Both the position numbers and the translations under genes were made by a program. DNA of 63,280 nucleotides from Welwitschia mirabilis. Lineage: Eukaryota. Of this stretch, positions 1 through 31,492 are shown piece by piece. The stretch lies in contig JBOZIK010000001.1 in the NCBI GenBank assembly GCA_051453625.1, forward strand, positions 45,360,099-45,423,378, given 5' to 3'. Positions within the stretch are counted from its first letter, which is position 1, and every line of letters begins with the position of its first letter. The notes below the pieces were generated by a model that was given only the letters and a program-made list of their open reading frames with translations, made no database searches and had not been told where the DNA came from.

Positions 1-549
1 CCGACATGGACTTACTGGGTCTATGACTTGCTTATTATGATGCATTTGGTTCATTTGCATTATACGAATAGTGAACTCTAGTCTTCTTGTAGGAAAAGTA
101 ATCAGGTGAAATATAAATGATTAAGGTGCAAGCGAGGGGGAAATTAAGTGAGAAATTAAAGTAGTGACCTTAAGAGTCTATTAAGGCTTCTTTCTTTTCC
201 ACTCAACTTGCTAATCTTATTAACTTGTATTAATTTGTTATTTCTTTTATTGTATAAGAAGTGATTATGCCTCCATAATATAAAGTGTTTTGATAATCTA
301 TCTCATTTGTTTTGCAATTAATATAGTTATAACCTAAAAGAGGGAATTCCTCATTTTTCTTTAATAAATTTTACAAGTAATTTAACATCTATCCTTCATA
401 GGGAGCGGTCTAAACTTATTAGAGTGTGTACACATACCTAGAATTTGACAATAATGTTCTTGAAAGATAGAACTTTATAGTACTAGAACTCATGTAGTGT
501 ACCCACCTTAGCTGATAACCTCATGGGAAAACACTTGTTCAATGTGTAG

Positions 550-621
550 CACTGCCCAGGTTGTCACCCATTTGAGTAGTGCTCCACACTGAGCATGCTT
601 AACTCTCGAGTTATTAGGATC
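550..621 (-). mobile_element. 5S rRNA-derived segment (box A to box C), as carried in Cassandra-type TRIM LTRs; probably part of a degraded solo LTR (~514-723) in the WD40 intron
   Basis: Minus strand reads GATCCTAATAACTCGAGAGTTAAGCATGCTCAGTGTGGAGCACTACTCAAATGGGTGACAACCTGGGCAGTG. This is collinear with the plant 5S internal region (GATCCCATCAGAACTCCGCAGTTAAGCGTGCTTGGGCGAGAGTAGTACTAGGATGGGTGACCTCCTGGGAAGTC). The 5S termini are absent. Confidence 0.6.
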
Positions 622-892
622 TTTAGTCAAGCTCAGAGTGAGAATTTTTACAAGCTAGGGCATTCTTGTGTATTTGTTGTTGAACTAATCCCTCACACCA
701 CGCAGGATAATCTAGCTTTTCACATTCTTCTTGCAAGACCCAAGGGTAGGTCATGGAGTAGTATGGAATAACTCAAGAGTGATTGTGTGTAGCAGCACAA
801 CAATGGTGGACCTAGTTGCTTGGGATCGAAGGGGAGAAATTGGATGGAGGACTGTTCTGTGTTTGATGCATCTCTTGTTCTTGGAGAGCTAA

Positions 893-942
893 AATAATAA
901 TAATACTAATAATATAACAATATTATTAGTATTATTATTATT
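893..942. repeat. Perfect 23-bp inverted repeat with 4-nt loop, followed by a partial direct copy (to ~1012)
   Basis: AATAATAATAATACTAATAATAT (893-915), AACA loop, ATATTATTAGTATTATTATTATT (920-942). AATACTAATAATATAACAATATT and TATTGGTGTCCAT recur at ~981-1012. Confidence 0.85.
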
Positions 943-1839
943 GGTGTCCATCCAATACTAATAATAATAATACTAATAATAATACTAATAATATAACAAT
1001 ATTGGTGTCCATTTTTCTTATGATAACATTATATCAGTGTAATTTATTTCACTGTTTGTTAAGCATTAATAAACACAAAAATTATTGGGGATTACCTAAT
1101 CCCCTTTAGGAATTGGTCTTTGACCCTTAAAAATGATGGAGGACATCATTTTTGAAATAATGGTCTTTGACCCTTAAAAACAGCAAAGGCTACAGAATTA
1201 AAATTTCTAAGGACTTGGGAAGGGAACATGCTAAAAAGTCAAGGCATCAAGTAATATTCAAATTCATTAAAACACATTTCTTAATACGTGCCAATACCAG
1301 TACATCACGCTAGGACACCACTAACAACTGGAATATGGGCTATGCAAACATTACCACTATAACTACTTCAAAACCAATAATGTTGTGGTTCAAAAAAGTG
1401 ACTCTTTCCAATCATGTCGACAAAAAAGATCAAGAATAAGGGTCCCATGCATGAAGGTGTGGATTACAGTCAAAAAACAGTCACAAGCAAACTCATGGAA
1501 GAGAAAGGGAACAATTCAAAAACCTTATATATTCTACTAGAATAGCAAATACTAGAATAGCAAGCACTAAGGAATGTTTCTTTGGAAACAAGAAATTGAG
1601 GGAAAAAACACAAAACATATCATTCCTTTGTTCTTTGTTAGTTGGCTAATTTCATTTCCTTTTCTATCTGCAAAAAACATGTTTTCAATTGCACTGACTT
1701 AGTACTAGTGCCACCTGTTTCAACCAGTTGATCTGGTTTTAGAGCTTAATACCTTGGACATTCATCACATCTTTACCAGTTATAAAAAGACTCAATGTTT
1801 TGACTGTCTAATTCCTCATTTGAACATTTTTTGTTTCAG

Positions 1840-1919
1840 GCAATAAAATACAGTTGGAAAAACAAGTGATTGTTGGTAAAAAAAGGAAAAACTCTTCTGG
1901 GAAGATCACTGGTTTTCAA
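1840..1919 (+). CDS. Internal exon of WD40-repeat (WDR44-like) gene: NKIQLEKQVIVGKKRKNSSGKITGFQ
   Basis: Acceptor ttgtttcag at 1839, donor GTATGT at 1920. The KITGFQ motif joins in phase to FVPG in the next exon. Confidence 0.85.
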
Positions 1920-2020
1920 GTATGTTGTATAATGTAGATTTTTTCTAAAAGATGGCAAGACAATCTTACAAGGCATTATGCTGTATCGTCATAACTATGT
2001 GATTGTTTTTGCTCTTTCAG

Positions 2021-2748
2021 TTTGTGCCAGGAGATTCAAAGAAAGTGTTGATAACGTCAGCAGATTCACGTATCCGAATTGTTGAAGCTGANNNNNNNNN
2101 NNNNNNNNNNNNNNNNNNNNNNNNNNNNNNNNNNNNNNNNNNNNNNNNNNNNNNNNNNNNNNNNNNNNNNNNNNNNNNNNNNNNNNNNNNNNNNNNNNNN
2201 NNNNNNNNNNNNNNNNNNNNNNNNNNNNNNNNNNNNNNNNNNNNNNNNNNNNNNNNNNNNNNNNNNNNNNNNNNNNNNNNNNNNNNNNNNNNNNNNNNNN
2301 NNNNNNNNNNNNNNNNNNNNNNNNNNNNNNNNNNNNNNNNNNNNNNNNNNNNNNNNNNNNNNNNNNNNNNNNNNNNNNNNNNNNNNNNNNNNNNNNNNNN
2401 NNNNNNNNNNNNNNNNNNNNNNNNNNNNNNNNNNNNNNNNNNNNNNNNNNNNNNNNNNNNNNNNNNNNNNNNNNNNNNNNNNNNNNNNNNNNNNNNNNNN
2501 NNNNNNNNNNNNNNNNNNNNNNNNNNNNNNNNNNNNNNNNNNNNNNNNNNNNNNNNNNNNNNNNNNNNNNNNNNNNNNNNNNNNNNNNNNNNNNNNNNNN
2601 NNNNNNNNNNNNNNNNNNNNNNNNNNNNNNNNNNNNNNNNNNNNNNNNNNNNNNNNNNNNNNNNNNNNNNNNNNNNNNNNNNNNNNNNNNNNNNNNNNNN
2701 NNNNNNNNNNNNNNNNNGCTGATAAGGTTATTTGCAAATACAAAGGAG
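2021..2748 (+). CDS. Exon of WD40 gene: FVPGDSKKVLITSADSRIRIVEADKVICKYKG (N gap 2092-2717 probably artefactual)
   Basis: Acceptor ctttcag at 2020. VLITSADSRIRI is typical of plant WDR44-like proteins. GCTGA is present on both sides of the gap. Donor AG|GTCTTG at 2749. Confidence 0.8.
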
Positions 2749-3032
2749 GTCTTGTCTTTGTTCCTTTATGTTAAATTCCATATGTGAATGATGATTTTTT
2801 TTTTCTTTTTTGTGTTGTTCCTTCAATGTTAAACAGATAGTACTTACATATGACAGTAAAATGAAAACATCTGAAATGCTCCATTAAGAGATTGCACATT
2901 AAAAGATCAATTTAAATATTTTTGGTTTCTTCTTGTCATTGGTTTGCTATTGTTCAAGTTTTATTTCTTCAAATTCTCATGCAATATGTTTTGTCATTGC
3001 AGTTTATTGATCTTTGTCAGATTTGTTTGTAG

Positions 3033-3817
3033 GTTTTCAAAACAAATGCAGCCAAGTGTCTGCATTGTTTTGTCCAAATGGGAAGCATGTTGTTTGTGCA
3101 AGCGAAGATTCACGTGTATATATATGGAATTATGATACATCCTGCATACCTACAAAAAAACATGGAAAGATTACTTGTTTTTCAAATGAACATTTCCGAT
3201 CGAATGATGTATCAGTGGCAGTTCCTTGGTCTGGTATTACGTTTATGTTCTCTCACAGAGCAGCAGAAGATACATTGTCTTGCCAGACAAATAACGCAAA
3301 ACCTTTGGGTTTTAAGGGGACAGTTTTGGAGAATGGCTTTCTTTTGCAAACGAACAAGGGACATCAATCTGAAGGAGATTTGGAACATGCTAATCAAACA
3401 TCAGATATACATGATTCAGGTCCAGTTTTACAACATGTCAATCAGACATCAAATATGGATGACACTAAACTCTCCAAGGGGTTGAGTGGCCATCACAACA
3501 TTTATACACACTCATCGTTAGATCAATATCAGACCCTGTGTCAATCTTTACATCTTCCTGGTAATTCCAATAGTTTGAATCCTAATCATGCCTTCTTGTC
3601 CACTGCTACATGGCCTGAGGAGAAACTTCCATCCCCAAGCCTGGAATTGCCAAAGTTTCACACTTCTTATGAAATATTAACAGCTAACAATAGAAATCCT
3701 AATCACAACCGGTCCAAAGTTGCTGCAGCTTTTGCATGGGGAACAGTAATTGTGACTGCTGATCATAGTGGAGAGATCAGAACTTTTCAGAACAATGGTT
3801 TGCCCATTCGTCTTTGA
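3033..3817 (+). CDS. Terminal exon of WD40 (WDR44-like) gene
   Basis: Acceptor tttgtag at 3032. Encodes FQNKCSQVSALF..GKHVVCASEDSRVYIWN, VSVAVPW, SATWPEEKLP-like and AWGTVIVTADHSGEIRTFQNNGLPIRL*, the conserved C-terminus of this plant family. Confidence 0.92.
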
Positions 3818-4673
3818 TAATGTTCGTGGTTATTGTGGTAAATATAAGGTCATGCTGAGTCTATTTCTAAGTTTGCAGGAAGAATGTAAACTGACAGATG
3901 ATGTGTAGGATACCAGGGTCCATGATTTCTACATGTTGTCTCCCTTGCCCATTTTAATGCAAGAAGACAATATGTGTGTCATACACAGTGCACCATAAAG
4001 AAGTATTGCCATGCTATATCACATGATCCTTAAATTGCTAGTACGTGATTGTGTATATGATCTACTATTGTCTCCTTCAAATGAAGTGGCAAAAGCATAT
4101 TTTACTATTAATTTTCGCATACCTCTCCTATTCTTTACCATTACATGATCCAACCAACTAGCAGCACTTGCTGGTGTTTAAGACAACCGTTTAGTACATG
4201 ATGTTGTGAGTGAAAAGCAAAAAAGCAAGATTCCGTTCAAGAACTGGCGGGTTCATATTTCTGAAACTAAAGTGAAAAATTGTGAGGGGAGGATGCCACA
4301 TTAACCAGTGTAGCATAACTCTCCGATTCACTCTCTTTGACGCAGCACCCCTGACTCAAAGTGAAATTTTTTTCCCAATTTAAAAAAAATTGATTATGGT
4401 TAGTGACTCGGTACTCAAGCAAGTCAAAAACTTTTGACTCTTTGCACATGATAAAAAGTCAAACTTTTATATTTTTAAATTTTTCCCTACAAAGCAAATA
4501 ACACAATTTATGAAAGAATAAATATATGATTATGAATTAGATTTTTTAACACTTTCTTTCACATGTTATATTGTGAAACCAACTTTATCTGTTTTGTAAT
4601 GTTACATTTCATTGTTAATACTCATTATTTAAAGACTTACTCCAGCGAAATGTGATTTTTAAATGACGTGACC

Positions 4674-4786
4674 TTAGTATTTAGCATAGTCTTTTAAAGG
4701 TGTTGTGGGGGTTAAATATTACTTGTAATTAGTATTTACCATAGTCTTTTAAAGGTGTTGTGGGGGTTAAATATTACTTGTAATTA
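4674..4786. repeat. Tandem duplication, 55-bp unit x2
   Basis: TTAGTATTTA(G/C)CATAGTCTTTTAAAGGTGTTGTGGGGGTTAAATATTACTTGTAA at 4674 and 4729, one mismatch. Confidence 0.95.
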
Positions 4787-5614
4787 TAGAGAATACTTTT
4801 GTGTTCTAGAAAGTTCTACTCTATATCTATTTAATCTCCTTTTGAGGTTGTGTTTGGGTATCAAATTGTCTTGCACAACATTTGGATTGAGGAGTAGTTC
4901 CTACTAGGAAGTTGAGAGCTGAAGTTTGGAGCCCCACTTGACTTGTTTGTAAGCTTTTCTTTCTAATAAATGTTCCACACTATTTTCTAATGGATGTTTT
5001 TGTGAACATTTAAGGGTTTTATCTTGTATATATCTCTCTATCTTTTCTATTTGCATTTGTCTTTTACTTATCATATCTTAGCATCACATTACATACACTA
5101 GTTTGCCTTGGTGTCTTTTTGCACATTTGAAATGATTCTATGAGTTGAATAAAAAAACCAATTAAAAAAAGGTCGTATTACACTCAGTTTTCTATATTGT
5201 TCATCTGTAATGGTATCTAATGGTCATTTGAGTTCATTTTTTCATTCTTGGAATGTTTTATAGTATTATATACACTTAAGAACATAGTATATTCATAAGA
5301 CATTAATATTATGTTGCTTTTTCATATTTATTATTTGACTCTTTTTGAATCTTGTGTAAAAGAGTCAGAATCATGTGAATGAAAAAATTAATGAGTCATG
5401 CTTGATAGTATTTGGATTCTTAAGATTTTTGAAGTAAGATCTTTGTAAGCAGGCATAAAAAGAAATGGTAGGTGGCCTAGAACTTCTGTTGGAAAGTCTT
5501 TGTTTGAATGTGTTAAGGAACAATAAAAACTTATTGAAATTGCCATCAAAGTTATAGAAGCTCCATATGATTTCATGTGTCTATCTCATATTCAATATTC
5601 AAATTTTGGAGTCC

Positions 5615-5770
5615 ACATGCCTATTTATCATGGTTTAGCCATGGTATTTGGAATAACCAACTATTCCACCCCTATGCGATGATAGTCTATAAAGCGTAAA
5701 CTGCATAGGAAGCTACCTTGAAGGCAATATTCAGTCTCTTTTCCTTAGAAGATGAATCCAAGGAAAGTGC
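5615..5770 (+). pseudogene. Possible ancient Ty3/gypsy gag relic
   Basis: Fragments PIYHGL and FSLEDESK resemble Athila gag LPxFHGL and FSLxDxAK. Very degraded. Confidence 0.3.
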
Positions 5771-6994
5771 AATTTTCCTTAATATATTCATGATATGATA
5801 AATTTATTATAACCTAAAAGCTTAAGAGTAAGTTAAAAACAAAAACATTTCCAAGTACCATTAGAAGAGAAAGATAGGTTTACACTGGATAAACTATCTT
5901 GAATAATTTCCTTGTTTGTAGGCATTAAGCTTGTAGAATTAGAATCATAATAATGATTAGCATAAATAAATTTTGAGTGTCATTTGGGGATGTCCTTTCT
6001 TAGCTTTGTATTTTGGCCACATAAGTGCAAGAAAATTAATCTAGATGTGGCACATTACTTAAAAGGAAATACAATCAGGGAGTCTATTAAAAGCACTTTT
6101 CCTTCTAGAACAAAATGGAGTAACCATTTTCCATACTTTTAGCTAAATCATTTTGTAACCTTTCCCATAAAATCTTTTATAGCTAATTTTTTCTACCAAT
6201 GATAGAGTCTCTCTCAATAAGTTCAAGAAACTATTCATATTTTCAAAAACTTGATCTATTAACCTATTATATTAAATGATTTTAATATTCTCTAATTGAA
6301 ATGTTCTTAAATCAAAGAAGTAGTTATGAATCACAAAAGTGCTCATGAGGGCCAACATAAGATCACATTAGATGAATAGAAACATGTGAAAGTCATAGTT
6401 TTATAAGTTCAAAAGTAAGCACTTGGTGCATTAATAACTTCAAAATACAAAATAGTCTAGTGATCTTTTATATAAGATACCACATATCATCTAATAATCT
6501 ACTAAAATTCATTGACATCAACTTGCTAAGCTACGAGAACTTTACAGATAAGTAACTGGCATATTGATAAACTTCTTTGACTAAAATGCATTGTCTCAGA
6601 TAGGTCTTAAAGAGTTCTTGATGGGTTAGAGTTAAATACATTATTAGTGAATAAGGGAAAATTTTGATGCATATTATTGAGAGAAAACCCATCATATCTG
6701 TTATGCTTCCTTCATATTCACCGATTTCAAGAAAGTCTCAGACTTGCCTACCTGCTTGCCTCTTCTGGCACACAATGTTTTGAAGGATAATTGAACAAAT
6801 ATTAAATTATTAGGAATAATCATTATAAGATATGAAAGGGATAATTTCTTTCCTTTCTTTGAGATTACTACTTATCTCATTGATTTAGTGCAAATGTTAC
6901 CTTTCTTTAATTTTGGAGATTATCAGATTCTTCTATGCAAGCTTTGATACAAAGGAAAGCTCTTCTTTGCTGCCATTTAACTTGATGTTGGAAT

Positions 6995-7017
6995 TATATA
7001 TATATATATACATATAT
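6995..7017. repeat. (TA)n microsatellite
   Basis: tatatatatatatatacatatat. Confidence 0.85.
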
Positions 7018-8489
7018 AAATCTTTTGAATTTTTGGGACTCCATCTGAGATGTTAAGAAGGTGATGATTTGAATTAGATGGATTCTTACATGGAATTTAG
7101 ATTTACCATACCATATATTCCAAGTAACGAAAGAAATAAAAGTTTCATAAAAGCTTTTAGCTTTGTTTTTAAGAGATTTCTTTGTTTTGTTAGCCATCAA
7201 CTATTCAAGTCTTGCTTGTGATTCATATATGACATGTTGAACCTTGTGTTAATTGCACCTTGTATAGATGGGTTGAAATATGAACCAACCTCCCTACTAT
7301 AAGATTTACACATAAGACATTAGAGCTTACAACTTATAAACTTGAATTAAATCAACTACTTTATGTGTTGGTTCACAAGAAAATTAAGGATTATATTTAT
7401 GTTTAAACTTTAATATAATAAGCTATAGGAAGTTACATTAGTGTAGAATTTATAAATTTTTGTTTTTAAGTAAAAATTTTTAATGAGTACCACAAGCCTA
7501 TATTGTGTTATAGACCTAGAATCTCAATTTCACTTAACAAATGAATTTCTAAATTATCAACATCATGAAGTTTTATAATGAACAAGGAGCTAGAAATTGC
7601 ACTTGTTATTAGATATTAGTTATATTTTATAAATGTTTAATTGTTAGACTCTTTAATTTTGATAACCTATTCTCTAGAACCAAGGAACTTGTTAGAGCTT
7701 GATTTTGAGTTGTGAAAGTGGACTTGAGAAATAAAGCTTGATAAATGAGGAGTTAATGATTATAAAAAAGATACTAATTAAAAAAACAGAATAACACTTG
7801 CTGGATTAAAAAGAATTTTCTAATGCTTAACTCATAAAATAGTTGGTACAATTGCATAAATTGTGAGCTTCAATGTCTTTTGTTGGAGTCATACAATATG
7901 TAGCTTGACTTATGGTTTTATCCATGTATTCAACTTGTACTAATGCATAGGATTTAATATTTTGAGTATGAAACATAAATGGGACCTAAATGTTTGGTGT
8001 CTAACTCCAAGGAGGGAGGTACCACCCATTTGTCTTTATGTAACCACATAAACTATTGACTATATTAAGTGTAGAACAATTTCTCATGAAATAACTTTGG
8101 AAACTTTTCTCTAAAAATGTAGTCAAAAGGCTACTCACAAAGTTCTTGATTAGTTATTTCATAATTGTATTATGAAAACATATTAATTCCTTTGTTTTTT
8201 ATCTTATTTTATTTTAAAATTGGTATGCTAATATTGAAAACTATAAAATTGTGATTGAATTCTTTACAGATGCCATAATCCTAACAAAATTGGATTTCAT
8301 CTGATTATGTATCTTAGACAAATGTCATATTAAGCTATATTACATGCTAAAATTTGGCTTCCCCTAAAGAAATTAATTCATCAGAGATCATGCCATACTT
8401 ACATTACATTACACAATAAATTCTAAGAACAAGAAGAAAAATATGAATAAATCAATTAAACAATTCAAGCCTTTTGGTTGCCTCATTAT

Positions 8490-9320
8490 GTTGTTGTGTA
8501 GATTTTTTTATAAGGTGATTTTATAAGAAGACGCCAAGCTAAAAATAGAATTATTATTATATAAGAAATTTAGGTTCATTGATCTTAGATTAAAAATAAA
8601 TTTGAAATTTATGATAGTACTACACTTAAACATTGATAACAAAAGGAAAAATATTTAAAGAGAAATTAAAGAAAATTATTAGAAAATAATTTATATAATA
8701 ATATTTTAAAAAAGATAAAAAGAAGTTGATCGTAAAGAAATGCATAAATAATCTTTCATTGTAAAGTCTTCTTTATTAGAGGTTATACATATAGTTCAAC
8801 TATGTTAAACAATGTTTGTAAGATGACTATGTAGAAAGAACTAAAGAAAAATTAAAATTATTATGTGAAAAGACTAGGTTGGTTACTCTTGAATTAAAAA
8901 AATTTTTAAATATTATTATAGTACTATAATTAGATATTAATAACAAAAGGAAAGATCCTAAAAAGAAGAATAAACAATTCTCTTAAAATCATTCATATAT
9001 TAATATCTTCAAAAAGAAAGAAACTTTTTTTTAAAGAAACACATAAATAATATTCCTTCATAAAATCTACTTTTTAAAACATTACCTATATATATGTATA
9101 TATTCTAAGTTTGTTGCATAATTTGTTTCTCAGATGATTTTATAGTAAAAAGCAATAAAAATTAAAAATATTAAGTGGAAAATTTAAGTTAATTAACCTT
9201 CAATTATAATTAAACTTAAAATATAGTCTAGTGTTAATTATTAATAACATAAAAGAAAATGTTAAAAGAATTTTTTTCTTTAAAAAATTCATATAATAAT
9301 AAAATTAAAACTAAAAATTT
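8490..9320. repeat. Degenerate AT-rich tandem repeat, ~305-bp unit, ~2.7 copies
   Basis: A block like TAGTACTA..ATT(G/A)ATAACAAAAGGAAA recurs near 8615, 8920 and 9220. GATGA(C/T)T..ATAG recurs near 8515, 8822 and 9134. Confidence 0.55.
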
Positions 9321-9789
9321 TCTTATTACATCCATAGGATCTTGAAAATCTATTAGACAAAAGAGAGATACATGGCATGAATTTGAAAGATATCATTTTT
9401 AAAATTACTTTAAGTATTGGATAGAACTTGAAATACTGTGATCAAATTATTGGACTTAGTGTTCTCTCTATTTTGTATATTACCAATTGAAAGACATTTA
9501 AGAAAGATAAAATATTCATCTTTAACAATGTTTTAGTAACAAAGTCGACATGTCCATTCTTATTAAGAAACTTAAGACCATCTATTTATTTCAATTCTAA
9601 AGTAATGAGATCCCATCCTTCTAAATCTATAGAGTGCATAATAACTATGAACACATAATTCCTCTTATGTTAAAGGGAAATAGTAGCACTTAAATAAGTT
9701 GTATTTGCCTAAATGGCTTTTATAATTAATGTAAAGTATAGTAAGAAATAAGATAGAGCTATGAAAATAGTGAGAAAATAGGTAGCAGA

Positions 9790-10535
9790 AGGATGATCTT
9801 ATAGCAAGGAAGAGGAAAAAAACATTTCTTGTATTTCTAAATGTATGATTTCCAACTTTTGATTGTTGGTTTATGATACATTAAATGTGTATTTATATTA
9901 AACCCTATATTTAGAAAAGAATTTAAAAATAAAGAGGACTTTTTTTTGATAGAATTAGTAGATGCAAGATATAAATTAAAGAAATAAAACTTTTTCCTCG
10001 TATTTTCTTTTGTCCTTTTATTATCCTTTAGAAGTTCTCGTTCTCTTTGAAATTCTAGTTTAAGATTCTTCATTTAACTCCAATTTTTTGTTTTTCCTTG
10101 CATCATTCCCTTTAAGTGAAAAACATTCTTATATACTTAAGAAGTCGATGAGGTTTCAATTTATTTATTTTTTGGTTAAGGCATTTCACATCCAAATTAG
10201 ATGCATATTTTGGCTTAATTAGGTATTCTTTATATTGCTAGTATCTTGTTTTCTTTTTCCTTAATATTTAATACTTCCCATGGCTTAGTTTTATCCTCTA
10301 ATGCTACATCTTTTTATTGGTTGTTGTTATCCTAAAAATTTATTGAATCCTTCACATGAAAAGTGGTTGACATTTTTAAGTGTATAGACAAATCAATCAC
10401 ATATACATTATCAAAATTTTTTCTTCATTTGGAATGATCCAACTTTTTTGTATCATAATTTTTGCTAGTTCTTTCCTTGTACTCTTTTTCTTATATGTGC
10501 CATGAGAAGAACATAAACTTGAAAATAGGTTTGCT
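9790..10535 (-). mobile_element. Chromovirus (CRM-like) Ty3/gypsy relic: integrase C-terminus (GPF), chromodomain-like tail, PPT and probable 3' LTR
   Basis: Minus-strand fragments MAHIRK, KKVGSFQ, NVYVIDLSIHLKMSTTFHVKD and KTRY.QYKEYLIK. PPT/LTR junction AGGGAA|TGATG at 10111-10101. The left boundary is uncertain. Confidence 0.55.
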
Positions 10536-10862
10536 ATATTTTTTTTCTTGGTGAAAAAGTATATATATTAGACTAGAAAATGTACATCAAGGGGGAAAAC
10601 GCCCAGGAATAAGAGGATGATTAACTATTCAAGAAAAGGGATAGTTCGTTAACTAGTGAAGGGGAAACTAAGAAATAGAACAAAATGGTGGTGAAACTGC
10701 CTCTCTAGTGATATAGTCACAGGGAACTACCTATCTAGAAGAGTAAAAGCATAGAAAAATAAAAACATAGTGCTACTGATAGACTAGAGGTGAAAATGCC
10801 CCTTGAGACCATAAGTTACAAAAAACTTAACTTTGGTAAGGAACAAACCTGAGAGGGGTGGT

Positions 10863-11090
10863 TTAAAGCTCTCTATAGGATGGGAACATGTTACCATGAT
10901 TATAGTCGAGAAGGAATCTACCCAAATCATTAGAAGAAATCTCAAACACTTGATTTATCTCCTTAAATTCTTTGACACCTACTGGATTTTTATTTGGATG
11001 TAATATTAGGGATTTCTTCCTATAGCTTGATTTAATGGCTTGAGGGAGGGCTTTATGAGAGGGTTCTAATGTCATAAAAGGGACTTCAAC
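10863..11090 (-). pseudogene. DnaJ J-domain at the 3' end of the LINE coding region
   Basis: PFMTLEPSHKALPQAIKSSYRKKSLILHPNKNPVGVKEFKEINQVFEISSNDLGRFLLD fits the J-domain consensus (IKxAYRKxALxxHPDKNP..FKEINxAYExLSDxxxR..YD). HPD reads HPN here. Confidence 0.8.
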
Positions 11091-11529
11091 CCTTGGACGG
11101 TTGCTAGTAGAACCTCTTGTCAAGCAGCATTCATGTTAATGTCCTCCGGGGGTTGAGGCTAAATTTGGATTGAGGAAGAATCTAAAGTAGAGTTTTGTGC
11201 AGAGCTGGGGCCCGATGCTAGAGTAGAGGAGGTCTAAGCATTCCTACCTCACTCTTGAGAGTTGGATAACGGTTGATCCTGAGTTGGTTCCTAGGATGTG
11301 CTAGGGTTAGGTTCCTAAGCTATCTTCTATTGGGCCAAGGGAAAAGATATATCTTCTGAATGACCTGGGGACGAAGTCGTCCCTCTCTGGTTAGGGCTAC
11401 AATGCGTAGTGGTTTTCTCTAGAGTAGGTATCCTTTTAAGTGAAGTTCTTCTTTTGGAGGTTCTCCTAAGAGGGGTCTGATGTGGGCAACAACAGGGGAG
11501 GGAGGGGAGGGACTCTCTTGCCCTAATTT

Positions 11530-11980
11530 CTTATGATATTCTTCAAAGGGATAAGACTAATCCTAAGTGCCTTGAGGAATCCTTTTATGTAAGAACTTCA
11601 ATAAAAATAATGGCAGGTTCACCTGATACCCTTAGTTAAGAGCTTTGAGAAAAGCAAAATGGATACCTGAAAGTTTGGAGTAATTCCCTAATTGAATAAA
11701 GTAATGGTCCACGAGCTCTGCACCTAATCCCCAGGGGGCGGTAGCACCTTTCTACTAATGTATCCACTTGGCAATTTAGGAACCCCACCGAGGAAGAAGT
11801 GGAGTGCTTCATGTTGCCCTCTACTTCCAAACAGAATCTGTTCTCCTTCTGTAGGGATCTGTAGCAGCCTGGAGAAAGAGTTTTCAGTGATTTTTATAGG
11901 AATTCTTCTGAACGTGGTATGTCTTCCTCTCCATCCTCTGTAAAAGGGGGTAATATCAGCCCCCTGGTCTTCTCTAAGCT
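11530..11980 (-). pseudogene. 'Putative plant transposon protein' (PF20167/Transposase_32-like) domain within the LINE ORF2 extension
   Basis: Manual translation with two 1-nt slips: ITPFYRGWRGRHTTFRRIPIKITENSFSRLLQIPTEGEQILF..GYISRKVLPPP(W)..AELVDHYFIQLGNYSKLSGIHFAFLKALN*GYQVNLPLFLLKFLHKRI..HLGLVLSL. The family call is from memory of motifs. Confidence 0.5.
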
Positions 11981-12149
11981 CATGCAGAAGGGGTTCTTAT
12001 CCCATTACTTATACTTTTTCCCATAGAGTAGGGCATTTTTTGAAGAGGCCTGGGTCAGAAGGCTTAATTATTGATGTGGATTCCATCACGACTCTGATTT
12101 GGAAATGAAGGTACTTGATCCTCCTTACTATATTTATAGGAAAGGATAG

Positions 12150-15100
12150 GGGGACGTTATTGAAAATCAGATCATTTTTGATCCTCTAAATTTGCCAAAA
12201 CGTTAATTGAATTCCATCCAATAAATGTATATCAGGGGTGTTGCAGGTTTGGTAGTACTTCTTCATAATGAAGATTAATTCTTTGATCTGAAAGCAATGA
12301 TGAAATAGATGCTGCACTATTTCTAGATTTAATTAGCAGATGGGACAGTTTGTATCCAATTGGAATCCCCTCTTAAGAAATTCGTCTCTAGTTAAGATTA
12401 TTTGATAGTATTTTAACCAATAAAAGACCTTAATTTTTTTCCAAAATCTATTCCTTCTAATACTTCTTATATGTGTCCTCTTTCCCATATTTCTTTAGAG
12501 GGATCTACTTGGTTGAATCAAACTAATAGATATTTAAGTCAATGAGTTGTTACCAAGCTTTCTGAGTTATTTTCTTAAGTAGAACTCCCCATGATCAAGG
12601 GTCTAATCTTTAGATTTGTAATTGATCAAATCACACTAGGGCTGACCTCCTTCTTGTAGTTTCTTTAAAATTCTATATGCTCTAGTGAGGATGCAATCTT
12701 TTAGTTTTTGAATTCCCCAATCCCCTGATTCTCTTGGATAGGTAATACTCTTCCATTTACAGAGATAAATTCAGTGATGATTCTTTCCTCTTGATTAAAC
12801 ACATTCCTTTAAGATCATGTTGATTTTTTAGATCATATTTCTTGAGGGGGCCATAACAGAAAATATGTACTAGAAAGAGGAAATTAAGTAAGAATTTGTG
12901 AGAATGATTTTAGCTTTGGATTAGAGAAAGTTATTTTACCATGAATTGCATTGACTTTAGATGGATTCCAAGATGTAATTCCAGATATTAATCTTGTGCC
13001 AATTTCGAAGAGGAATACCTAGGTATATATATCTTAGAGGTATCCTAATTTTGCACTCAGGATTCAAGCGATTTCATCCCCTCTGATACTTTTTCTATTC
13101 AAAGTGTGGATTCTTGATTTATTCTAGTTGGTATGAAGCCCTGTTGACGCTACAAAGNNNNNNNNNNNNNNNNNNNNNNNNNNNNNNNNNNNNNNNNNNN
13201 NNNNNNNNNNNNNNNNNNNNNNNNNNNNNNNNNNNNNNNNNNNNNNNNNNNNNNNNNNNNNNNNNNNNNNNNNNNNNNNNNNNNNNNNNNNNNNNNNNNN
13301 NNNNNNNNNNNNNNNNNNNNNNNNNNNNNNNNNNNNNNNNNNNNNNNNNNNNNNNNNNNNNNNNNNNNNNNNNNNNNNNNNNNNNNNNNNNNNNNNNNNN
13401 NNNNNNNNNNNNNNNNNNNNNNNNNNNNNNNNNNNNNNNNNNNNNNNNNNNNNNNNNNNNNNNNNNNNNNNNNNNNNNNNNNNNNNNNNNNNNNNNNNNN
13501 NNNNNNNNNNNNNNNNNNNNNNNNNNNNNNNNNNNNNNNNNNNNNNNNNNNNNNNNNNNNNNNNNNNNNNNNNNNNNNNNNNNNNNNNNNNNNNNNNNNN
13601 NNNNNNNNNNNNNNNNNNNNNNNGTTGAGAAAGGTTTGACCTCTAATTCTAATTCCTGTAACTCCATTCCTTCTTAGGAAAACTTGTAACATATTCATCA
13701 CAAAAATGAAAAGGTATGGGGATAGGGTGTCCTCTTGTTTCAATCCTCTACCTACTGAAAGGAAATTTGATTTATGGTTATTAATCTCCACACTAAATTT
13801 TGCTAAAGCCTGTATGTCTAGCCAAAGATTAATAATATCTTAAGAAAAACTTATTTACCTAAGGATACATCCTAATGCTTATCAACTAACTGAGTTATAA
13901 CCTTTAGTGATATCCAATTTAGCAATAAGAAGAGGAAATTTGTATTTTTTAATAAAGTGAATAATCTCATGAGTCAAGAGGATTTGGTCTTGGATATACC
14001 TGGATCGGATGAAGCCAACTTGGTTCTTTGAAATCACATTAGGAAGTAGGGGGTGATACAGCCAACCATGATTTTCGCAAAAATTCTATAAGTAATATTA
14101 CAAACACCTAGAGGCTTGAAATTCTATGGTTTACTAGCATTCCTATTTTTTTAGGTATAAGTACCACTCTATTTCTGTTTATTTCCTTAGGAATCTGCCT
14201 ATTATGGAAGAATTTTTGCATCACATCATTAAGGTTATCCCCTAAAATGGAGAAGTGGGATTTAAAAAGTTCAATTAGCCATTCATTAGGGATAGGAACT
14301 CGGTTATTCTTCGTGGATCTAATAGTAGATAAGACCTCCTCTCTACTTAGAGCTTTAATCAACATAGAATTATCTTCAGTTGAGATTTTCTTATTTTCTG
14401 GAATAAGGCCAGGAGCGATATCGTCCCATTTCTAGATTCTCTTAAGATGGACCTACAATTCCTTAGCTATATGCTTTTAATTTTTTATGGTTTAAGGTCA
14501 AATGGATAATCTTCTGATCTTGTTATCTAATCTATGCTGGTTGGCTTGTTGGAAGAAGAATCTGTATGTTTATCACTCTTTTTTAGCCATTTGATCCTTC
14601 AGTGTTCTCTCTAGTAGTGTTCTTTATCAGCATTTATTTCTTAGAGATCTATTAGGCACTGATATTCTTTGTTTTGTAGACTATCCTAGTTACCTCCTTC
14701 TTCTACTCAGTTTGGATTCTTTTAATTCCCTCCTCAAGCTTGATTTTTGATTTAAACCTCTCTTTATATTTCCTTCTCCAATCTCTAAATTGAGACTTTA
14801 GGGTATTGAGGCTCCTGTATAGAAATGTTATGCATTGAGTCCCATCATACTGTGTCCATATTTTTTTCAATAGCATTCTAGTTTCTATTCAATTAATCTG
14901 ATACTATTCCATATGAAATGGAGTTTGGGTGAAATTGCCTCTACTTTACAAGCTTCAAATGGAAGTTTAGCTAGATCCTTTCCAGCCAGAACTCTGTCAA
15001 TCTTGGATATTATCAGATCTTTACCTGCTCTTCTACTCAACCCTGTATACTTACACCCAGTAATAGGAATGTCTATGAGAAAGTGTCTTACCAAAAAATC

Positions 15101-15561
15101 TTTTAGTATTGAGGAACCTTTGGAATTCTAGCTATCACACCCTAATTTTTCCCAGCGTTGAAGACATTAATTAAAATCACCTAGGATGAGCAATTTAGAT
15201 TTATCTATTACTATCCTCTAAGCTTCTTTTAAGATAGAAGCCTTATCTTGATTATTTTGGGGACTATAAAGATTTGTGCCAGTCCAACCCTCTTTTTTAA
15301 GGAGAATCGTGATGTGGTTCTTGTTACTATGAATTAGATCTACCTCTCTTTTGATAGAGATAGTAAGATCATCAAAGTTTTCTTGAGATGCAATAGTGAA
15401 GAAATTCCATTACTACATAAATTCATTTTTCCCATATCATTTTCGATCTTCATTTCCTATAAGAAAACTAGATCGATCTTCAATTAATTGATCATGTTTT
15501 GTAGGGTCTTTTTCTTATAGGAGGATCCTAATCCCTTGTAATTCTATGTGAGACAATTCAT
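12150..15561 (-). pseudogene. LINE ORF2: APE endonuclease, reverse transcriptase, zf-RVT (decayed)
   Basis: Start MNCLT*NYKGLG at 15561. ILGDF-type and SKIDRVL endonuclease motifs. RT motifs FIRSRYIQDQILLTHE, KLDITKGY and RGLKQEDTLSPYLFIF, then YLGIP. Zinc finger CPIC..EIVQHLFHHC and WQI*RIKNDLIFNN. Confidence 0.9.
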
Positions 15562-16760
15562 TGGGGGGTTTTTTCCATCCTTTTTTGGGTGCTTTACCTT
15601 TCTTTAGGATATCCTTAATGATGGATTGGAAACTATTTGCAATGTTTTCTATTGTTTCTCATTCTCAGAGAATTCTATTGCTAGGCCTTTCCTTTGTTTG
15701 AGTTTCCACTTTATTAGGTTCATCATCATTTAGAGGTTGTTGGGTGTCTTTCTCTTCTACAAGAGGTTGAAAGGAATAATTCTCTAGTTCTTGTACTTTT
15801 TTTGTTGCTATCCTTGATTTCCTTGGAAAAAATAGTAGTACTTTTTTTCGTTTATTTCTTTCTTTGCTTATGTTAGTATGTGTTCTGATTGTAATCAATT
15901 TTCCCACAAAACATATAAGCTTTCTTTAGCTTTTCTTCAATATTAATCAATTGTTTTTTACATCTCTTAGATGACCCAATCTTCCACAATGTAAGCATTT
16001 CTTTTCAAAAGGATCACATCTTCCAGAGAGATATCCTAATTTTTCATGGACTGTGTAAGAAATAGGAAGATTCTTATAAGTGATGTCAAGCTCACAAATA
16101 CCCCATTTAGATCTAAATTTTACAGATTGGATCTCCTTAATATCCTATAAGCTTATCCAAATATAAAATCTAGCTAACACTAGTCTTGTCTGTTTAATAG
16201 TGATCCTGTCGAGTTTGATGAGTTTGTTAAACTGAGTTGTCATTTTCCTTAAACTCCAATGGGAACTTATGGATTCATATCCAAATCGGTATCCTCTTAA
16301 ATAAATTCGGGTCTAATTTCATGCCCAACATCCATTTGGCTAGGGTAAGACCTTGAACCCCAAAAAACTAAGGTCCTCTTGCAATTATTTCACCCTGACA
16401 TCCTTAAAGTTAATTTTTCACTTATCAATGCAAATTTGCTGTCTTAAGTTAAATTGATTTATTGATCTTGAAGAAGTAAAATTTCTTGTCATAAGATTTG
16501 GAGTCATGGGATTTCATCCGTAAATAACCTGAAGTGATGTTTTTCCTTCTACTTCTATAAATGGAATTGTTAAAATTCAATTCAACTTGAGCAATCTTCT
16601 CTTTCTATTGCTTTGGATTCCATTTGCTTAAATACCTGAAAATATTTTCTGCTTTTATTTATTACTTTAGCTTCTTCCTCAATTTGAGGATGGAATGCTA
16701 AAGAAAAAATCAAACTGGCTCCCTTGAGCTTTAAAATACTTCTCCAAAATGAGATATAAA
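15560..16760 (-). pseudogene. LINE ORF1 (DUF4283 + CCHC zinc knuckle)
   Basis: RGP*FFGVQGLTLAKW, IPIWI*IHKFPLEF, KLDRITIKQTRLVLARFYI, YKNLP and KCLHCGRLGH. Confidence 0.8.
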
Positions 16761-16769
16761 TCTAACACA

Positions 16770-17070
16770 ATCGTTAGAAACAACGTTGTTTGACACTTTA
16801 TGGAGCCTTACTACTTTAAAGAATAATCTAGCTACATAAACTTCATCTTCATTCTTACTACATGGTACAAAATGTGATGTCTTAGAAAATCTATAATGAC
16901 TAAAATGGTATAAACCCCTTTCTTAGTTTTAAGAATCTTAAGTATTAAATCCATGCTAATGCCATTCTATGGTTTAAATGGGATAGTCAATAGCTGATGT
17001 ATATCTTATTAATTCTTTTCTTCTTTTTCCCTTTGATATATTAATGAACATAAAGATTTATGCATTCAAG
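16770..17070 (-). pseudogene. Chromovirus integrase core fragment (other half of the relic split by the LINE)
   Basis: IPFKP*NGISMDLILKILKTKKGVYTILVIID..SKTSHFVPCSKNEDEVYVARLFFK.VVRLHKVSNNVVSN matches PWxDISMDF..VVDRFSKMAHFIPC..LFFxEVVRLHG..IVSD. Confidence 0.75.
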
Positions 17071-20000
17071 TTGATGTTTTTATGATTTTTATGATTAATA
17101 CATGTGACTTTCGTATTGATAACTAGATGTTTTTTTAATAAATTTATTATTAGTTAGTAGTATATGCATTATTATGATTTTTGTATGTATAAGATATCAT
17201 TTGGTAAACACATGCTAGAGAAAAACAAATGCCTAAAAGGTAGGAACCACTTTTCTTGATACTGCTACTTCTAAGAAGCCAAAATAGGAACTATGAAGGA
17301 GGAAGTTAGAAGATAAGAATAAAAGAGAAAAGGGAAAGGTAGTAATAGATCTTTGGTAAAACGAAAGAGGATGAAAATCCTAAGCTAAATATTAAAAAGT
17401 GAAGATGCTCCAGTGTATTATAGATGGAGTAGCATGTGTCTTGCAAGCTCCAGTGTAATCTTAAAAGGGGAATACTATCATTGGTACATTCTGTAATAGT
17501 TTTATCTTTTTCATTAAGATAAGATGTAAGCTAAAAGGCTATTTATTTATAATGGTATTACATGTTAAAAAGTACTATAAGTAGTGATACTACTTAAAAA
17601 AGTAGTATTTTTACTTTCTTGCACTTGTATCCAAAGTTGGGTGGATACTTAAGATATAGAAATGCTTAGAAATACGTATTGTTTAGATTTATTCTATTAA
17701 TACTTTTTTAATAATAACTTCACACTATTTCCCTGTATATAACTAGTAAAACACTATACTATTCTAAGAAGTGATTTTGAGAGGTTTTGAAGTCACTAGA
17801 TTTTATAAGGTAGTTACTTTCAATAATCAAAGAAATAAGCTAATAAAAATTTCATAAGTTGTTAATAAGCAAGTTATCAACTTAAAATTTTCAAGTTGAT
17901 CATTTTCAAAAAGTAATCTTATAAACATAATTTGAACCAAGTTAGTTGAGAATTTAATCATCTTATTTAGTTATTTAAGTGAACCTTTATTATTTGTTAA
18001 ATGATATGAGCTTACTTTATGTTAATAGCCACATTGTTTTTTGTATTTTCCATCATAATTTATATTGCTTTGCATTAAGTTTTTTAATAATAAGCTTTCA
18101 TAATTTTTGACTCTTGAACAAGGGCCTTTTTAATGTTTACTAACCAAGATAATGAATCCTATAATTTAGAGAGATAGTCAAGAAAAATGGAGAAATAAGA
18201 AAGAGAGTTTTGTCAAAAGCCCTAAGAAATATAACTTGAAGGAACAAAAAGAGAAGTAGAAGAGAATAGTAAGAAAAGTATCAATACTAAAAGCAGAAGG
18301 TGGTTTGTTTATTTCTAAGCACATTAGTCTATTAGAGGAAGTTGCAAAAAAGGTAACTAATAGTATGATTGAAAAATTTGATAAACTAGATGTACATCAT
18401 TTAAAAAGCAATGAAGGACATATTTGTGAACATTGTAATGAATATGATCAGAATGGAACTGACTACCCTGAGTTGTAAGAAGTTTTTTTGGTGACTAGAT
18501 ATTACTAAGTTAGATCTAAATTTTGGAAACTAATCTCAAACTACATGAAATTGATATCCATATCAAAGTAAGAAATGGTAGAACAAAATAAAAAAATCAT
18601 GTAAAAGTATGTCACCTTTAAGAGATAGCAACAAACAAGGTATTATAAAAATTTAAAAAATAAAGATCATGATAAAAGAAAAGAAACACAAGAAGTCAAG
18701 AAGAAGGTAGGGAAAATTCCTACTCAACTATAAACTAATCCTAGATAATCGAGTAGTAAGGCTATAACTATAAGATCTAGAAAACCCAAATTAATTGATT
18801 AGAAACCTTGGAAGATAATGACAACTCATCACTTTGGTGATAATAATAGCATAAAAACAATCTAAAAATTTAGCCTCTCTAATGGAAAGTGAGTGGCTAA
18901 GCATCCTAAGATTAAAAATGATATTACATATCTAGAAAAATATTCAGTAGAATTACCAATCATAAAACTACTAAATGATGTACCCATTTATTAAAGATAG
19001 ACAAAGAGCCTGTATTTGAAATCTAAAACCTCTAAGAAGAAGAAACAAATTAAAATGGCAAAAATGGACCAAGTCTTTTAGACTTCTATACAAGTTCTTC
19101 AAAATAAACAATATGAAAAATATAGCAAACCTAGATTACTAATGACTATAAAAAGGATTTACAATAAATTTAAATTAAAAGCTCTAGTTGATTTAAGAGC
19201 AAGTCTTAATGTTATGCCATATGAAATGCATGAAGAATTAGAAAATCTAGAATTATCACCCTCTCATGGAAACATATATTTGGTAGATGGTTTTGTAGTA
19301 GTATTTAAAGGAATTCTCAAAGATATATCAATTTGAATCCAAGTGTTTATTTATCTAATGGAAAAGCAAGAAGATACCTATGAAGTCATTTTTAGAAAGA
19401 TAACAGATGATCACCGGAGATGTAACTATTTATTCTAGGAAAGGGGTTATGAAAATTAGTCTAGAAGAATTTAAACAAGTAATTAAATAATTTAAAGCTC
19501 TAGTATTAGAAGATATGATATCTACCATGGAATCTAGGATCAACTTTATCTTAAGTCAAGAAGCTCATATGATTCTAAAATAGCAGAATTGGAAAAAGTA
19601 CAAAGGATAAAGCCTAACACCTTAAGATATCAAAAAGCCAAGTCTTAAGGAAGGATTACAGTATATGGATGTAGCCTCAAATAAACCTATGATTATTAAT
19701 AGTAATTTAACTTATTCTTAGAAAAAGACTCTTTAAAAAAATATTAGTAAAAAGAAAAGAAGCCTTTGCTTAGAATCACATTGATATTAAAAGAATAGAT
19801 CTAGTAAAATATTAGCACAAGATTTATTTGGATACTTCCATTAAATTAAGATGACATCCTAAAGTAAGGTGCAATACACATATGAAGGAAGTAATGAAAA
19901 TAAAAAATTTTCAAAATCTTATGGATTTTCATCTATCTATATTGGACTTAGAGTAAGTAAGTTCTTTTAATAGTGCCAAATAAAGAAAATAAATGGAGAG

Positions 20001-20837
20001 TATGTATAGATTTTTGAATGTTAAAAATAGTAACTTATAAAGATAATTTTCTTCTACCTTTTATAGATCAAGCCTTAGAAAGAATATTTGGGCATTAAAA
20101 TTATCTTTTTTGATACATACAGTGGATATAACTAAGTCTTAATAGCTCTAAAGGATTAAAATAAACTAAGTTTTACATGTTGTTAAACCAATTATGATTA
20201 TAAAGTATTACCATTTGGATTGTGTAATGTTCTCATCACATTTCAAAATTTAGTGAAGAATATGTGTTAAGATATGATAGGAAGATTAGTGGGGATGTTA
20301 ATGGATGATGTTTCAACATTTAGGAATAGTTTTAAGAAATTATTAGAGAGATTAGAAAAGGTTTTAAAGAGATGTAAAGAGAAAAATCTGAAAACTAGTT
20401 GGTCTAAAAGTTATCTCATGGTCAGTGAGGTTCTCGTCCTAGGCACAAAATTTTCCAAAGAGGGATTGAGACTGATGAATGAAAAGTTAGAGCTATATAG
20501 GATATAATATAATTAACAAGGTTTAAAGAATTAAGATCTTTCCTTGAATACATAGAATATCATGGGATATTCATAGCTAATTTTAGTAAAACTACTAAAT
20601 TCCTAGTAATCTTCTACAAAATAATGTTGAATATACTTGAACTGATGAATGTCAAAATGTTTTCTAAACATTAAAAGATAAAATACCAATGGCATCTATA
20701 CTATAAGAGCTTGATTGGATAAGGCCTTTTCATATAATGACTAATGCATCCAACCATGCTATGGGAGTTGTCTTAGAAAAAATATAATGAAAATAAACTT
20801 TATACTATCACTTATGTTAGCAATAATTTTAAGGTTG

Positions 20838-29490: not shown

Positions 29491-31492
29491 ACTAACTGCA
29501 ACCATGTGGACTAACCATAACAAGGAACACACCCTAGAAATGGAACACACACAAGAAATTTTTATATAAAACAATATTACAAGAAGTATTCCATACCACT
29601 TCTTATAGTATCATTTTACATAAAATTGCATATCACATAAATTAATTGGGACAAGCCCCCAACCTAACTTTTACTCGGTGGGAGTTGGTAAATTTTACCT
29701 CATAAAATACAATATTTATGCCCCTCTAAAACAATAATTTCTTTCATAATGATGTTTCTACAAAATGATAATAATAACTCAGGTTGCTCTTAATGACAAC
29801 ATTTTACACACCTCTTTGATGTGTGCACTATTAAATTTTATGTCACACATCTTACAAAGCCATCTTCAAATTTACATAGGAGATCTCTTCTTATCCCCTC
29901 TTAAATAAAGTACCATATTCCTCCTTACATGGTCCTTAGGGTTTATTGCTTTACCCTTTTTCACTCTATCGCCTTAAAGAGTGAAACAAAAAACACATGG
30001 ACTTAATTTTAGTGTGCCTCACAACAATTTTAGGTCACACTAGTAAACAATGGCTATTTCAAAAGGGGATACATGTGCCTTCTTCTATTCTAGAACACCA
30101 TTACATAAAATGAAATTTTACAAAAAAAGGATTTTACAAAATACTTAAAATAGTTTGTTGGCATAAAAAGGAGTTTCAACTCACCCTCTTGGAAATAATG
30201 GATCTTTTTTCTTTAAAAAATAAGTTACCGAGAAAAATAATGAAATGTAAGGGAAGAAAGAGAATTAAACCAATTTGTTTTCATTAATGCTCAGCCAAAT
30301 GCCTCACTCGGACATCACAGATGCCGAGACCACCAACTTGATGCACCAAATTGGCTGGCCACATTACTATTTCTTAAGAACATCAATCCATTTCCATTTT
30401 ATTGCCCAAAAAGTATTGAGGCACTAAAGCTTTTTAGACTGAGCATTCTGTCCTTTCTCTTGGATTCCCAAACTAGGTTATTTATGACATAGAGTCAGGC
30501 TAGTCTAGAGACCAAAAAACTTTCTAAAGATTATAGGGACCGTAGGGTATGGCAAGGGGACCATAACAGAGTCATCCATAGACCACAGATTGAATGCTGG
30601 AATGTTATTCTAGATGGCGTTCATCCCCACGATGCAGAAATCACTAGATGAATAGAAAATAATGTGTGATATTCCAAGATCCATGATGGTTTTTTGTGTC
30701 CAGCCCATGAAGAAGTCACTGATGATGCAGACTAGATTTATCATTTATTATTATGCGAAAACCCTATAAGTTTGACACGCACTGATATCAAGATTTTTAG
30801 TGATTTCAGATACATGATTTTCTCTACAATTATGCTATTTGAAAGCCATGCTAGGGTTTTTCTTAAGGCTTAAGAAAGGGCTACAAGAGTATCATTTCTT
30901 GTAAGCGGATCACATTTCATGTGCTTTACCATAACTGTGTCTGGTCCCACTGGATACCACGTTCTTCCTATGATTCTAAAGAGAAAAATGATGAACATCA
31001 TTATCATGATATATCTAAGAAGCATTTTCTAAGATTGATAGATCACCATCACCATTTTTGTAGCATTTTCTGCATCTGAACCAAAATAATTATAGGATTG
31101 GAAGAAAATGCCATGAAGCATGAATTCCTTTAACTAGCTCCGATACCAATTGTTGGATCTAACAAATCCATTATGCATAGATCAGCCATGACTGAGAGCC
31201 TAAATGTCTCCTAGGGAGCGGATGTGATATACCATTCAAAAAGCTCACTTTTGATATTAAAATTGAGGGGTTTAAATACCCTTAAAATACAATAAAATAG
31301 GTAAGGATAAGTAATGGAAGAGGAAAATTAGGAAGTGGTTTTAACAACCACTTAATTATGGAGTTTAACCCTTAAAAATATTCAACAAACCTNNNNNNNN
31401 NNNNNNNNNNNNNNNNNNNNNNNNNNNNNNNNNNNNNNNNNNNNNNNNNNNNNNNNNNNNNNNNNNNNNNNNNNNNNNNNNNNNNNNNNNNN

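Follow-up and report, generated by a model that had tools for sequence, protein, structure and literature searches.

The window analyzed here, a 63,280-nucleotide (nt) stretch of Welwitschia mirabilis DNA (assembly GCA_051453625.1, contig JBOZIK010000001.1, positions 45,360,099 to 45,423,378), carries on its minus strand a long interspersed nuclear element (LINE) and, between the zinc-binding domain and the poly(A) end of that element, a relic of a DnaJ-type J-domain (Table 1). The LINE domains are collinear, running from a DUF4283-type open reading frame (ORF) 1 through the endonuclease (EN) of ORF2 and its reverse transcriptase (RT) to zf-RVT. Only zf-RVT clears its curated Pfam cut-off; RVT_1, Exo_endo_phos_2 and DUF4283 score 20-22 bits, a shortfall that we ascribe to the stops filling this copy. 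Judged by its domain set, on which the name L1 rests, the element is a decayed plant L1-type non-long-terminal-repeat (non-LTR) retrotransposon, a zf-RVT domain after the RT and a DUF4283-type ORF1 being what we take to be plant-L1 hallmarks. The best solved relatives of the RT relic are R2 retrotransposon RTs (phmmer against PDB, E 6.5e-07 to 4.4e-05); the ORF2 region 12087-13154 returned 0 matches in PDB.

Table 1. Features of the LINE copy and of the sequence between its zinc-binding domain and its poly(A) end, in 5' to 3' order along the minus strand.
Feature	Position in window	Strand	Evidence
LINE ORF1 relic, DUF4283-like	16248..16391	minus	PF14111, 20.1 bits, E 5.6e-4, under the 27.2-bit cut-off
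LINE ORF2 endonuclease relic, APE/EEP type	14966..15274	minus	PF14529 Exo_endo_phos_2, 20.1 bits, E 5.9e-4, under the cut-off
LINE ORF2 reverse-transcriptase relic	13624..14431, resuming below the N gap 13158-13623	minus	PF00078 RVT_1, 21.7 bits, under the cut-off
zf-RVT zinc-binding domain, LINE ORF2	12291..12476	minus	PF13966, 35.6 bits, E 1.5e-08, over the 27.5-bit cut-off
ORF2 tail past the zinc finger	12087..12290	minus	In frame with the zinc finger and ORFx
ORFx, second coding relic, in frame with ORF2, Met at 12086, GC 0.45	11727..12086	minus	Similarity to P0001
Linker, GC 0.44, C/T-rich tract, variable among copies	11136..11726	minus	Path cost, contig depth
J-domain open frame	10866..11135	minus	Pfam match at nt 10929-11069; HPN at 10992-11000
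TAA stop, 12 codons past helix IV	10863..10865	minus	Sequence
3' untranslated tail of the repeat unit	10554..10862	minus	High-copy; X1 records 3 and 4 run into the tail from the J-domain
Degenerate poly(A) end of the element	10539..10553	minus	A8 in the window at 10539-10546; repeat boundary at 10554

The J-domain frame is stop-free over 90 codons and matches the DnaJ profile PF00226 at 34.2 bits (E 2.7e-08; curated cut-off 27.8; residues 23-69, profile positions 6-55 of 63). Within a read-through frame of 918 residues, its score remains at 29.6 bits (E 7.7e-07). A phmmer search of PDB retrieved 20 distinct chains at E<=0.01, and the table entries read were J-domain proteins or fusions. Class A proteins matched best, namely dnj-12 of C. 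elegans (2och, E 2.5e-08) and DNAJA1 of human (E 1.9e-06). The alignment to them is gap-free from helix II through the loop and helix III to helix IV, and the loop that joins HPD to helix III is equally short. In a coding test that compares the path cost of stops and frameshifts with 200 local shuffles, the frame costs 0 against 3.6 in the shuffles, three of which were equal to it. AlphaFold2, run on the single sequence of this ORF, modeled only two helices with a mean pLDDT of 45.4, too low for the model to be informative. On the strength of the profile and PDB matches, we consider the J-domain to be genuine.

These data bear out what the first-pass annotation had read from the letters: a J-domain-like peptide at 10863-11123, lying on the LINE strand upstream of the poly(A), with a loop tripeptide HPN that is one G>A change from HPD. 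The window copy thus lacks the invariant HPD, the tripeptide needed to stimulate Hsp70, and, judging from the HPN and the stops in ORF2, its J-domain is dead. Class A J proteins carry an HPD in an N-terminal J-domain followed by a G/F region, whereas here the HPN-bearing domain reaches a stop 12 codons after helix IV, and Pfam searches of the flanking minus-strand frames found no G/F region or zinc-finger region after it. More broadly, the three minus-strand frames of 6000-10900 and 17000-20600 held no further parts of a DnaJ gene and no other domains in Pfam. Directly after helix IV, the hexamer GGTAAC at 10890-10895 (minus strand) resembles a splice donor; if it were one, the J piece could derive from a genomic first exon and intron rather than from a processed mRNA.

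The same annotation had placed the J-domain between the ORF2 zinc finger and the poly(A), at the end of the ORF2 coding region. The order stands, and the adjacency does not: the J-domain lies 1.15 kb downstream of the zinc finger, separated from it by a coding relic, which we call ORFx, and a non-coding-looking linker of 590 nt. The stretch 12494-11727 (minus strand) has a clear coding signal, with 4 in-frame stops in 256 codons and a path cost of 4 versus 12.9 in shuffles (0 of 200 at or below this cost). Its first part, the ORF2 tail, presumably corresponds to the usual plant L1 C-terminus, and no old 3' untranslated region (UTR) or poly(A) lies between this tail and the ORFx Met. The linker costs 7 versus 6.8 in shuffles (135 of 200 at or below this cost) and shows no coding signal in the window copy, so that a J-domain at the end of the ORF2 coding region is not supported. 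Within the linker, a C/T-rich tract at 11480-11530 (minus strand) can be read in two overlapping frames, both open and Pro/Ser-rich; we take it to resemble the CT tracts of plant 5' UTRs or promoters.

To look for relatives of this region, we used an exhaustive phmmer search of 1.84 billion representative proteins with the 382-residue read-through of 10866-12011 as the query (E<=1e-3). It returned 5 matches: P0001 and four generic J proteins of 178-601 residues with 33-45% identity. P0001, the sole relative that this search retrieved for ORFx (E 3.7e-18), comes from EukProt and is an ORF of 91 residues on a Welwitschia mirabilis transcript. In BLASTP the two align without gaps over all 91 residues at 62% identity (E 1e-41), share the position of the Met start, and the two stops of the window copy align with Q and W. 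Neither ORFx nor P0001 has a Pfam match at E<=10, PF20167 Transposase_32 included; the nearest named Atlas clusters of ORFx, PF20167 (0.89) and ATHILA ORF1 (0.88), fall under the 0.9 evidence line and serve as leads only. ORFx may itself constitute a new domain at the LINE C-terminus. An identity as RNase H was considered for it and dropped, as no profile matched. The generic J proteins comprise three from JGI/IMG (two named CbpA) and one from Ceratiomyxa, none of them long enough to include an RT, and a Pfam scan of P0002-P0004 gave no RT family match. No RT plus DnaJ architecture, of the kind that the first-pass annotation had suggested surveying, was retrieved from the 1.84 billion representatives. 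Word-indexed protein searches with the J ORF, ORFx and P0001 gave 0 matches each, which is weak evidence.

To determine whether the J-domain belongs to this copy or to its family, we mapped DNA contigs from two sequencing runs, X1 and X4, on 9800-13150 at >=80% likeness. Against the single-copy flank 9800-10494, contigs of X1 (labeled organism A) and X4 (organism B) show 0-2 differences in 250-417 nt, so the two runs represent essentially one genome and do not provide independent support at the species level. In total 13,942 (X1) and 15,978 (X4) contigs mapped, and because most are less than 90% alike we interpret them as paralogs. Summed contig depth, which is not a copy number and is used here as an order of magnitude only, amounts to 25-220 across the flank 9800-10471. 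It rises to about 4000-5300 at 10472-10583 and spans 318-7997 over 10472-13150, where 13150 is the edge of the mapped stretch. Near-identical contigs of the single-copy flank have a depth of 2.7 (X1) and 5.4-7.7 (X4), so that the repeat is 45 to more than 1000 times deeper. Over 10808-11143 depth is 1521-7997, with about 90 distinct contigs per site in each run, and in neither run is the J region shallower than the LINE tail. Among the difference rows listed (40 of 1170), the number of distinct contigs with an alternative letter is likewise 87-91 in the J region versus 77-118 in the LINE tail.

The downstream end of the repeat is sharp. In 94 (X1) and 97 (X4) contigs, the match ends at 10554 with a run of 16 T on the plus strand, followed by unlike flanks whose agreement between contigs is 0.57-0.58, and depth falls there from about 4000-5300 to 25-100. 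The 10554 boundary marks where many dispersed insertions end in poly(A); in the window, the J stop and the A8 run are about 310 nt apart. Among the 16 of 30,432 pieces listed, contigs bridge the junctions at 12086 (n=2; X1 record 7 and X4 record 15, about 82% alike), 11727 (n=5) and the J stop at 10865 (n=2). About 10% (X1) and 8% (X4) of contigs run on into unlike sequence. The first-pass annotation had considered that other copies might end right after the zinc finger; the depth of the J region, the shared poly(A) ends and the bridging paralogs speak against this.

These observations bear directly on the idea of a single-copy event, in which a processed pseudogene, a host DnaJ exon or a one-off 3' transduction lies beside the window copy only. 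J proteins are common host genes, the GGTAAC hexamer resembles a donor site, and BLASTN and TBLASTN searches found no second copy of the J-bearing region or of the LINE body within the 63-kb window. Against this stand a J region that is the deepest part of the repeat, hundreds to thousands of times above the single-copy flank contigs, a coverage at each site by some 90 or more different, diverged contigs from either DNA run, and the poly(A) tail with its differing flanks. Paralog alignments of 250-290 nt over 10713-11011 also speak against a depth artifact of low complexity. The stretch 12086-10554 is probably a family-level part of the LINE, and a one-off retrocopy is very unlikely.

Base composition points to the origin of this stretch. 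GC is 0.32-0.34 in the LINE body and ORF2 tail and steps to 0.45 in ORFx at 12086, followed by 0.44 in the linker, 0.38 in the J-domain and 0.36 in the 3' tail, with flanks at 0.24-0.28. The step at 12086 makes the downstream module appear to come from elsewhere, and suggests that 12086-10554 was captured from foreign sequence. Of the variable places, transitions make up 801 of 1023 in X1 and 793 of 994 in X4. The Welwitschia genome report gives a transposable-element GC of 28.77% and describes deamination-driven transposon decay (PMC8275611), with which the low GC and the transition excess seen here are in agreement.

Our data thus lead us to favor, at an even level of confidence, the reading in which a captured module spread with the LINE family and the J-domain traveled as a passenger. 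The window copy is one dead member of a high-copy, poly(A)-ended L1-type family, whose 3' end (12086-10554) would be a mosaic module of ORFx, linker, J-domain and 3' UTR. An ancestral master element may have captured this module from cellular or other-element RNA or DNA, either by a template switch onto another RNA or by read-through followed by loss of the old tail, and the module would then have multiplied with the family. The J-domain probably lies inside the LINE family unit and would be physically linked to the RT in the same copies. It is a true relic, most like class A and about as intact as ORF2 when the window copy inserted, and is most likely cargo of the 3' region and not a working, translated part of the ORF2 protein (ORF2p).

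Several observations weigh against this interpretation. The zf-RVT, ORFx and the J-domain share one frame, which chance alone would give 1 time in 3, and ORF2 reads into the ORFx Met without any stop after 12186. The J-domain clears its Pfam cut-off, which none of the RT, EN and ORF1 relics does, so it was well preserved at insertion. The depth maximum falls on the J core at 10920-11031 (4558 in X1, 7997 in X4), which could reflect conservation among copies. The coding test has little power on the GC-rich, variable linker. As to continuity, no piece among those listed crosses 11011-11148, no single contig record joins RT, ORFx and J-domain (contigs are short, the listed pieces measuring 248-569 nt), and depth is patchy, dropping to 138 at 11098 and 122-165 at 11351-11440.

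The coding signals among these points are in line with the inference of the first-pass annotation that the LINE family may recruit host Hsp70. The family would then have encoded a functional J-domain, either at the C-terminus of a longer ORF2p (EN-RT-zf-ORFx-linker-J) or in a third ORF, and this domain would have stimulated Hsp70 to aid folding or assembly of the LINE protein or ribonucleoprotein (RNP). This explanation, which we rate as somewhat unlikely, draws on the strand and frame that the J-domain shares with zf-RVT and ORFx, the continuity of ORF2 with ORFx, the 90-codon open frame that few shuffles equal, the DnaJ score over cut-off next to decayed core LINE domains, and the depth maximum on the J core. 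The spread of the module across a high-copy family further implies that the master copies carrying it were competent. At site 11062, nearly all paralogs among the difference rows listed encode Leu where the window has Pro, and in our reading Leu fits the J-domain profile better. A gain for a LINE from Hsp70 is plausible, as human L1 ORF2p co-purifies with HSPA8 and HSPA1A according to one study (PMC5821459). Two readings were tried and dropped: the J-core depth peak as a sign of selection, since A/T richness may slow decay by deamination, and the inference that the family as a whole has HPN from a missing row at the HPD codon, since 40 of the 1170 difference rows were listed.

Opposed to a working J-domain are the linker without coding signal, the lack of an in-frame Met upstream of helix I, the HPN of the window copy and the GC step that suggests a foreign origin. 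L1 3' regions also turn over by picking up non-coding sequence. The search of 1.84 billion representatives retrieved no RT plus DnaJ protein, nor did the transcript-derived proteins searched include an intact J ORF from the LINE family. RNA reads from two runs, X14 and X17, mapped on the same stretch at the same threshold, gave 113 and 61 matches, of which 104 and 47 are less than 90% alike, and about 87% run into unlike sequence. Given this low likeness and these unlike extensions, the reads represent diverged paralogs and say little about the window locus; a search of sequencing runs listed no RNA run among its matches. In the J core, reads of the two runs match just 48 nt (10949-10996), with shared changes at 10976 and 10984. 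The paralog that they represent matches the window across the HPN codon, with at least 3 differences, and, as read from the loose ends, has lost one base of the Pro codon and carries a stop beyond it. We interpret these loose ends as transcription of at least one other decayed J copy, in both orientations; the sole paralog seen in RNA is thus frameshifted and carries a stop.

A more specific form of this idea holds that ORF2 of a gnetophyte L1 lineage was extended by a foreign module, with ORFx as an unnamed plant domain and a J-domain at the C-terminus, and that the lineage reached about a thousand copies with the J-domain translated, serving as an Hsc70 recruiter for the LINE protein or RNP or as a decoy against SILENZIO-type silencing in a heavily methylated genome. 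We regard it as unlikely, and a decoy role against J-protein-dependent silencing would be speculative. SILENZIO is an Arabidopsis J-domain protein that is recruited by MBD5/6 to methylated DNA and silences transposons with HSP70 (PMC8616336). It likewise connects a plant J protein with transposon control, but is host-encoded and relevant here only as a possible source or mimicry target.

The gaps in continuity, in turn, would be explained if two or more unrelated repeats met at this locus: a separate poly(A) retroposon family with a J relic (about 10554-11150, or longer) downstream of a 3'-truncated or ORFx-extended LINE, which would leave the J-domain outside the LINE family. In X1, depth falls upstream from the J core (4558, 1521, 686, 444, 319) and rises again from 11480, with an overall dip of 318-784 at 11144-11479, and the low of 138 at 11098 lies immediately upstream of helix I. 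The absence of a listed contig across 11011-11148, the linker without coding signal and the lack of a target-site duplication framing one element point the same way. No matching 12-16-mers were found between 10440-10556 and 16200-17700, a loss that is expected in a copy so decayed and with an undefined 5' end. We nevertheless consider this arrangement distinctly unlikely. Among the loose-end clusters listed (35-97 contigs each), none marks where the upstream family would end (3') or a J family begin (5'): no comparable cluster occurs between 10594 and 11734, and poly(T) occurs only at 10554. Depth never nears the single-copy level, and contig counts of 59-86 at 11148-11242 match those of the J-domain. 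Paralogs often skip or replace parts of 11325-11604, yet some match both sides, a weak link as the match comprises 22 letters where given. GC is raised over the whole of 12086-10554, and strand and frame are shared.

The element shares with plant L1-type LINEs the DUF4283 ORF1, the APE-type endonuclease, the RT, the zf-RVT and the poly(A) end. Some plant L1 lineages have gained an extra RNase H after the zinc finger, an instance of modular C-terminal gain; the window LINE, in contrast, shows no RNase H match and instead has ORFx and, 1.15 kb past the zinc finger, the J-domain. A foreign accessory domain at the ORF2 3' end of a non-LTR family also has a parallel in insects, where, according to two papers, a viral SF1 helicase was added at the C-terminus of ORF2 in R1/TRAS and Jockey LINEs (PMC4686597; PMC6338049). 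That helicase is full-length and fused in frame, whereas fusion of the J-domain is putative here. The text of the latter paper, a review of retrotransposon accessory domains, contains 0 occurrences of DnaJ, chaperone or Hsp (PMC6338049). Full-text literature searches that combined J-domain terms with those for LINEs, non-LTR elements or transposons yielded no element-encoded J-domain, with subscription journals, Repbase and supplements outside the scope of this search.

Routes by which host sequence could join a LINE are known. In L1 3' transduction, foreign sequence is joined to the LINE and ends in its own poly(A). Chimeras of L1 and cellular RNA arise by template switching or RNA ligation, according to one study (PMC6789731). 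As a rule, such transductions and chimeras exist in one or a few copies, and in the known chimeras it is the L1 part that occupies the 3' side. In the window LINE, by contrast, this position is taken by the foreign part, which is high-copy.

Among selfish elements, polyomavirus T antigens carry their own J-domain to use host Hsp70, and their HPD-dependent function is proven. They differ in belonging to a DNA virus, and the J-domain in the window is known from sequence alone. Had the LINE J-domain worked, a retrotransposon would meet its dependence on host Hsp70 as polyomaviruses do, offering a handle on LINE RNP folding; a translated J-domain would be the first encoded by a retrotransposon. 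If it was only cargo, it would still be a clear case of a LINE having copied a host-type coding fragment hundreds to thousands of times. A J-domain piece in many copies of a LINE family would represent a new kind of LINE cargo: known accessory gains include RNase H in plants and a viral helicase in insects, and no chaperone-recruiting domain was among them in the literature searched. J-bearing copies can also seed false DnaJ gene calls in the Welwitschia genome.

Some features of the locus lie outside this argument. A CCHC-type zinc knuckle motif, recognized by eye in the translation, is present at 15950-16006 (minus strand), 3' of the DUF4283 relic; such knuckles are also found in plant L1 ORF1. 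The window is a gapped scaffold with eight N runs, four of them exactly 100 long (2092-2717, 13158-13623, 26839-27809, 31393-31492, 41025-41478, 52158-52257, 53116-53215 and 57462-57561), the second of which cuts the LINE reverse transcriptase. In the downstream flank, a separate repeat at 9800-9911, unrelated to the LINE unit, has a depth of 173-222, and nearly all of its contigs have A for G at 9847.

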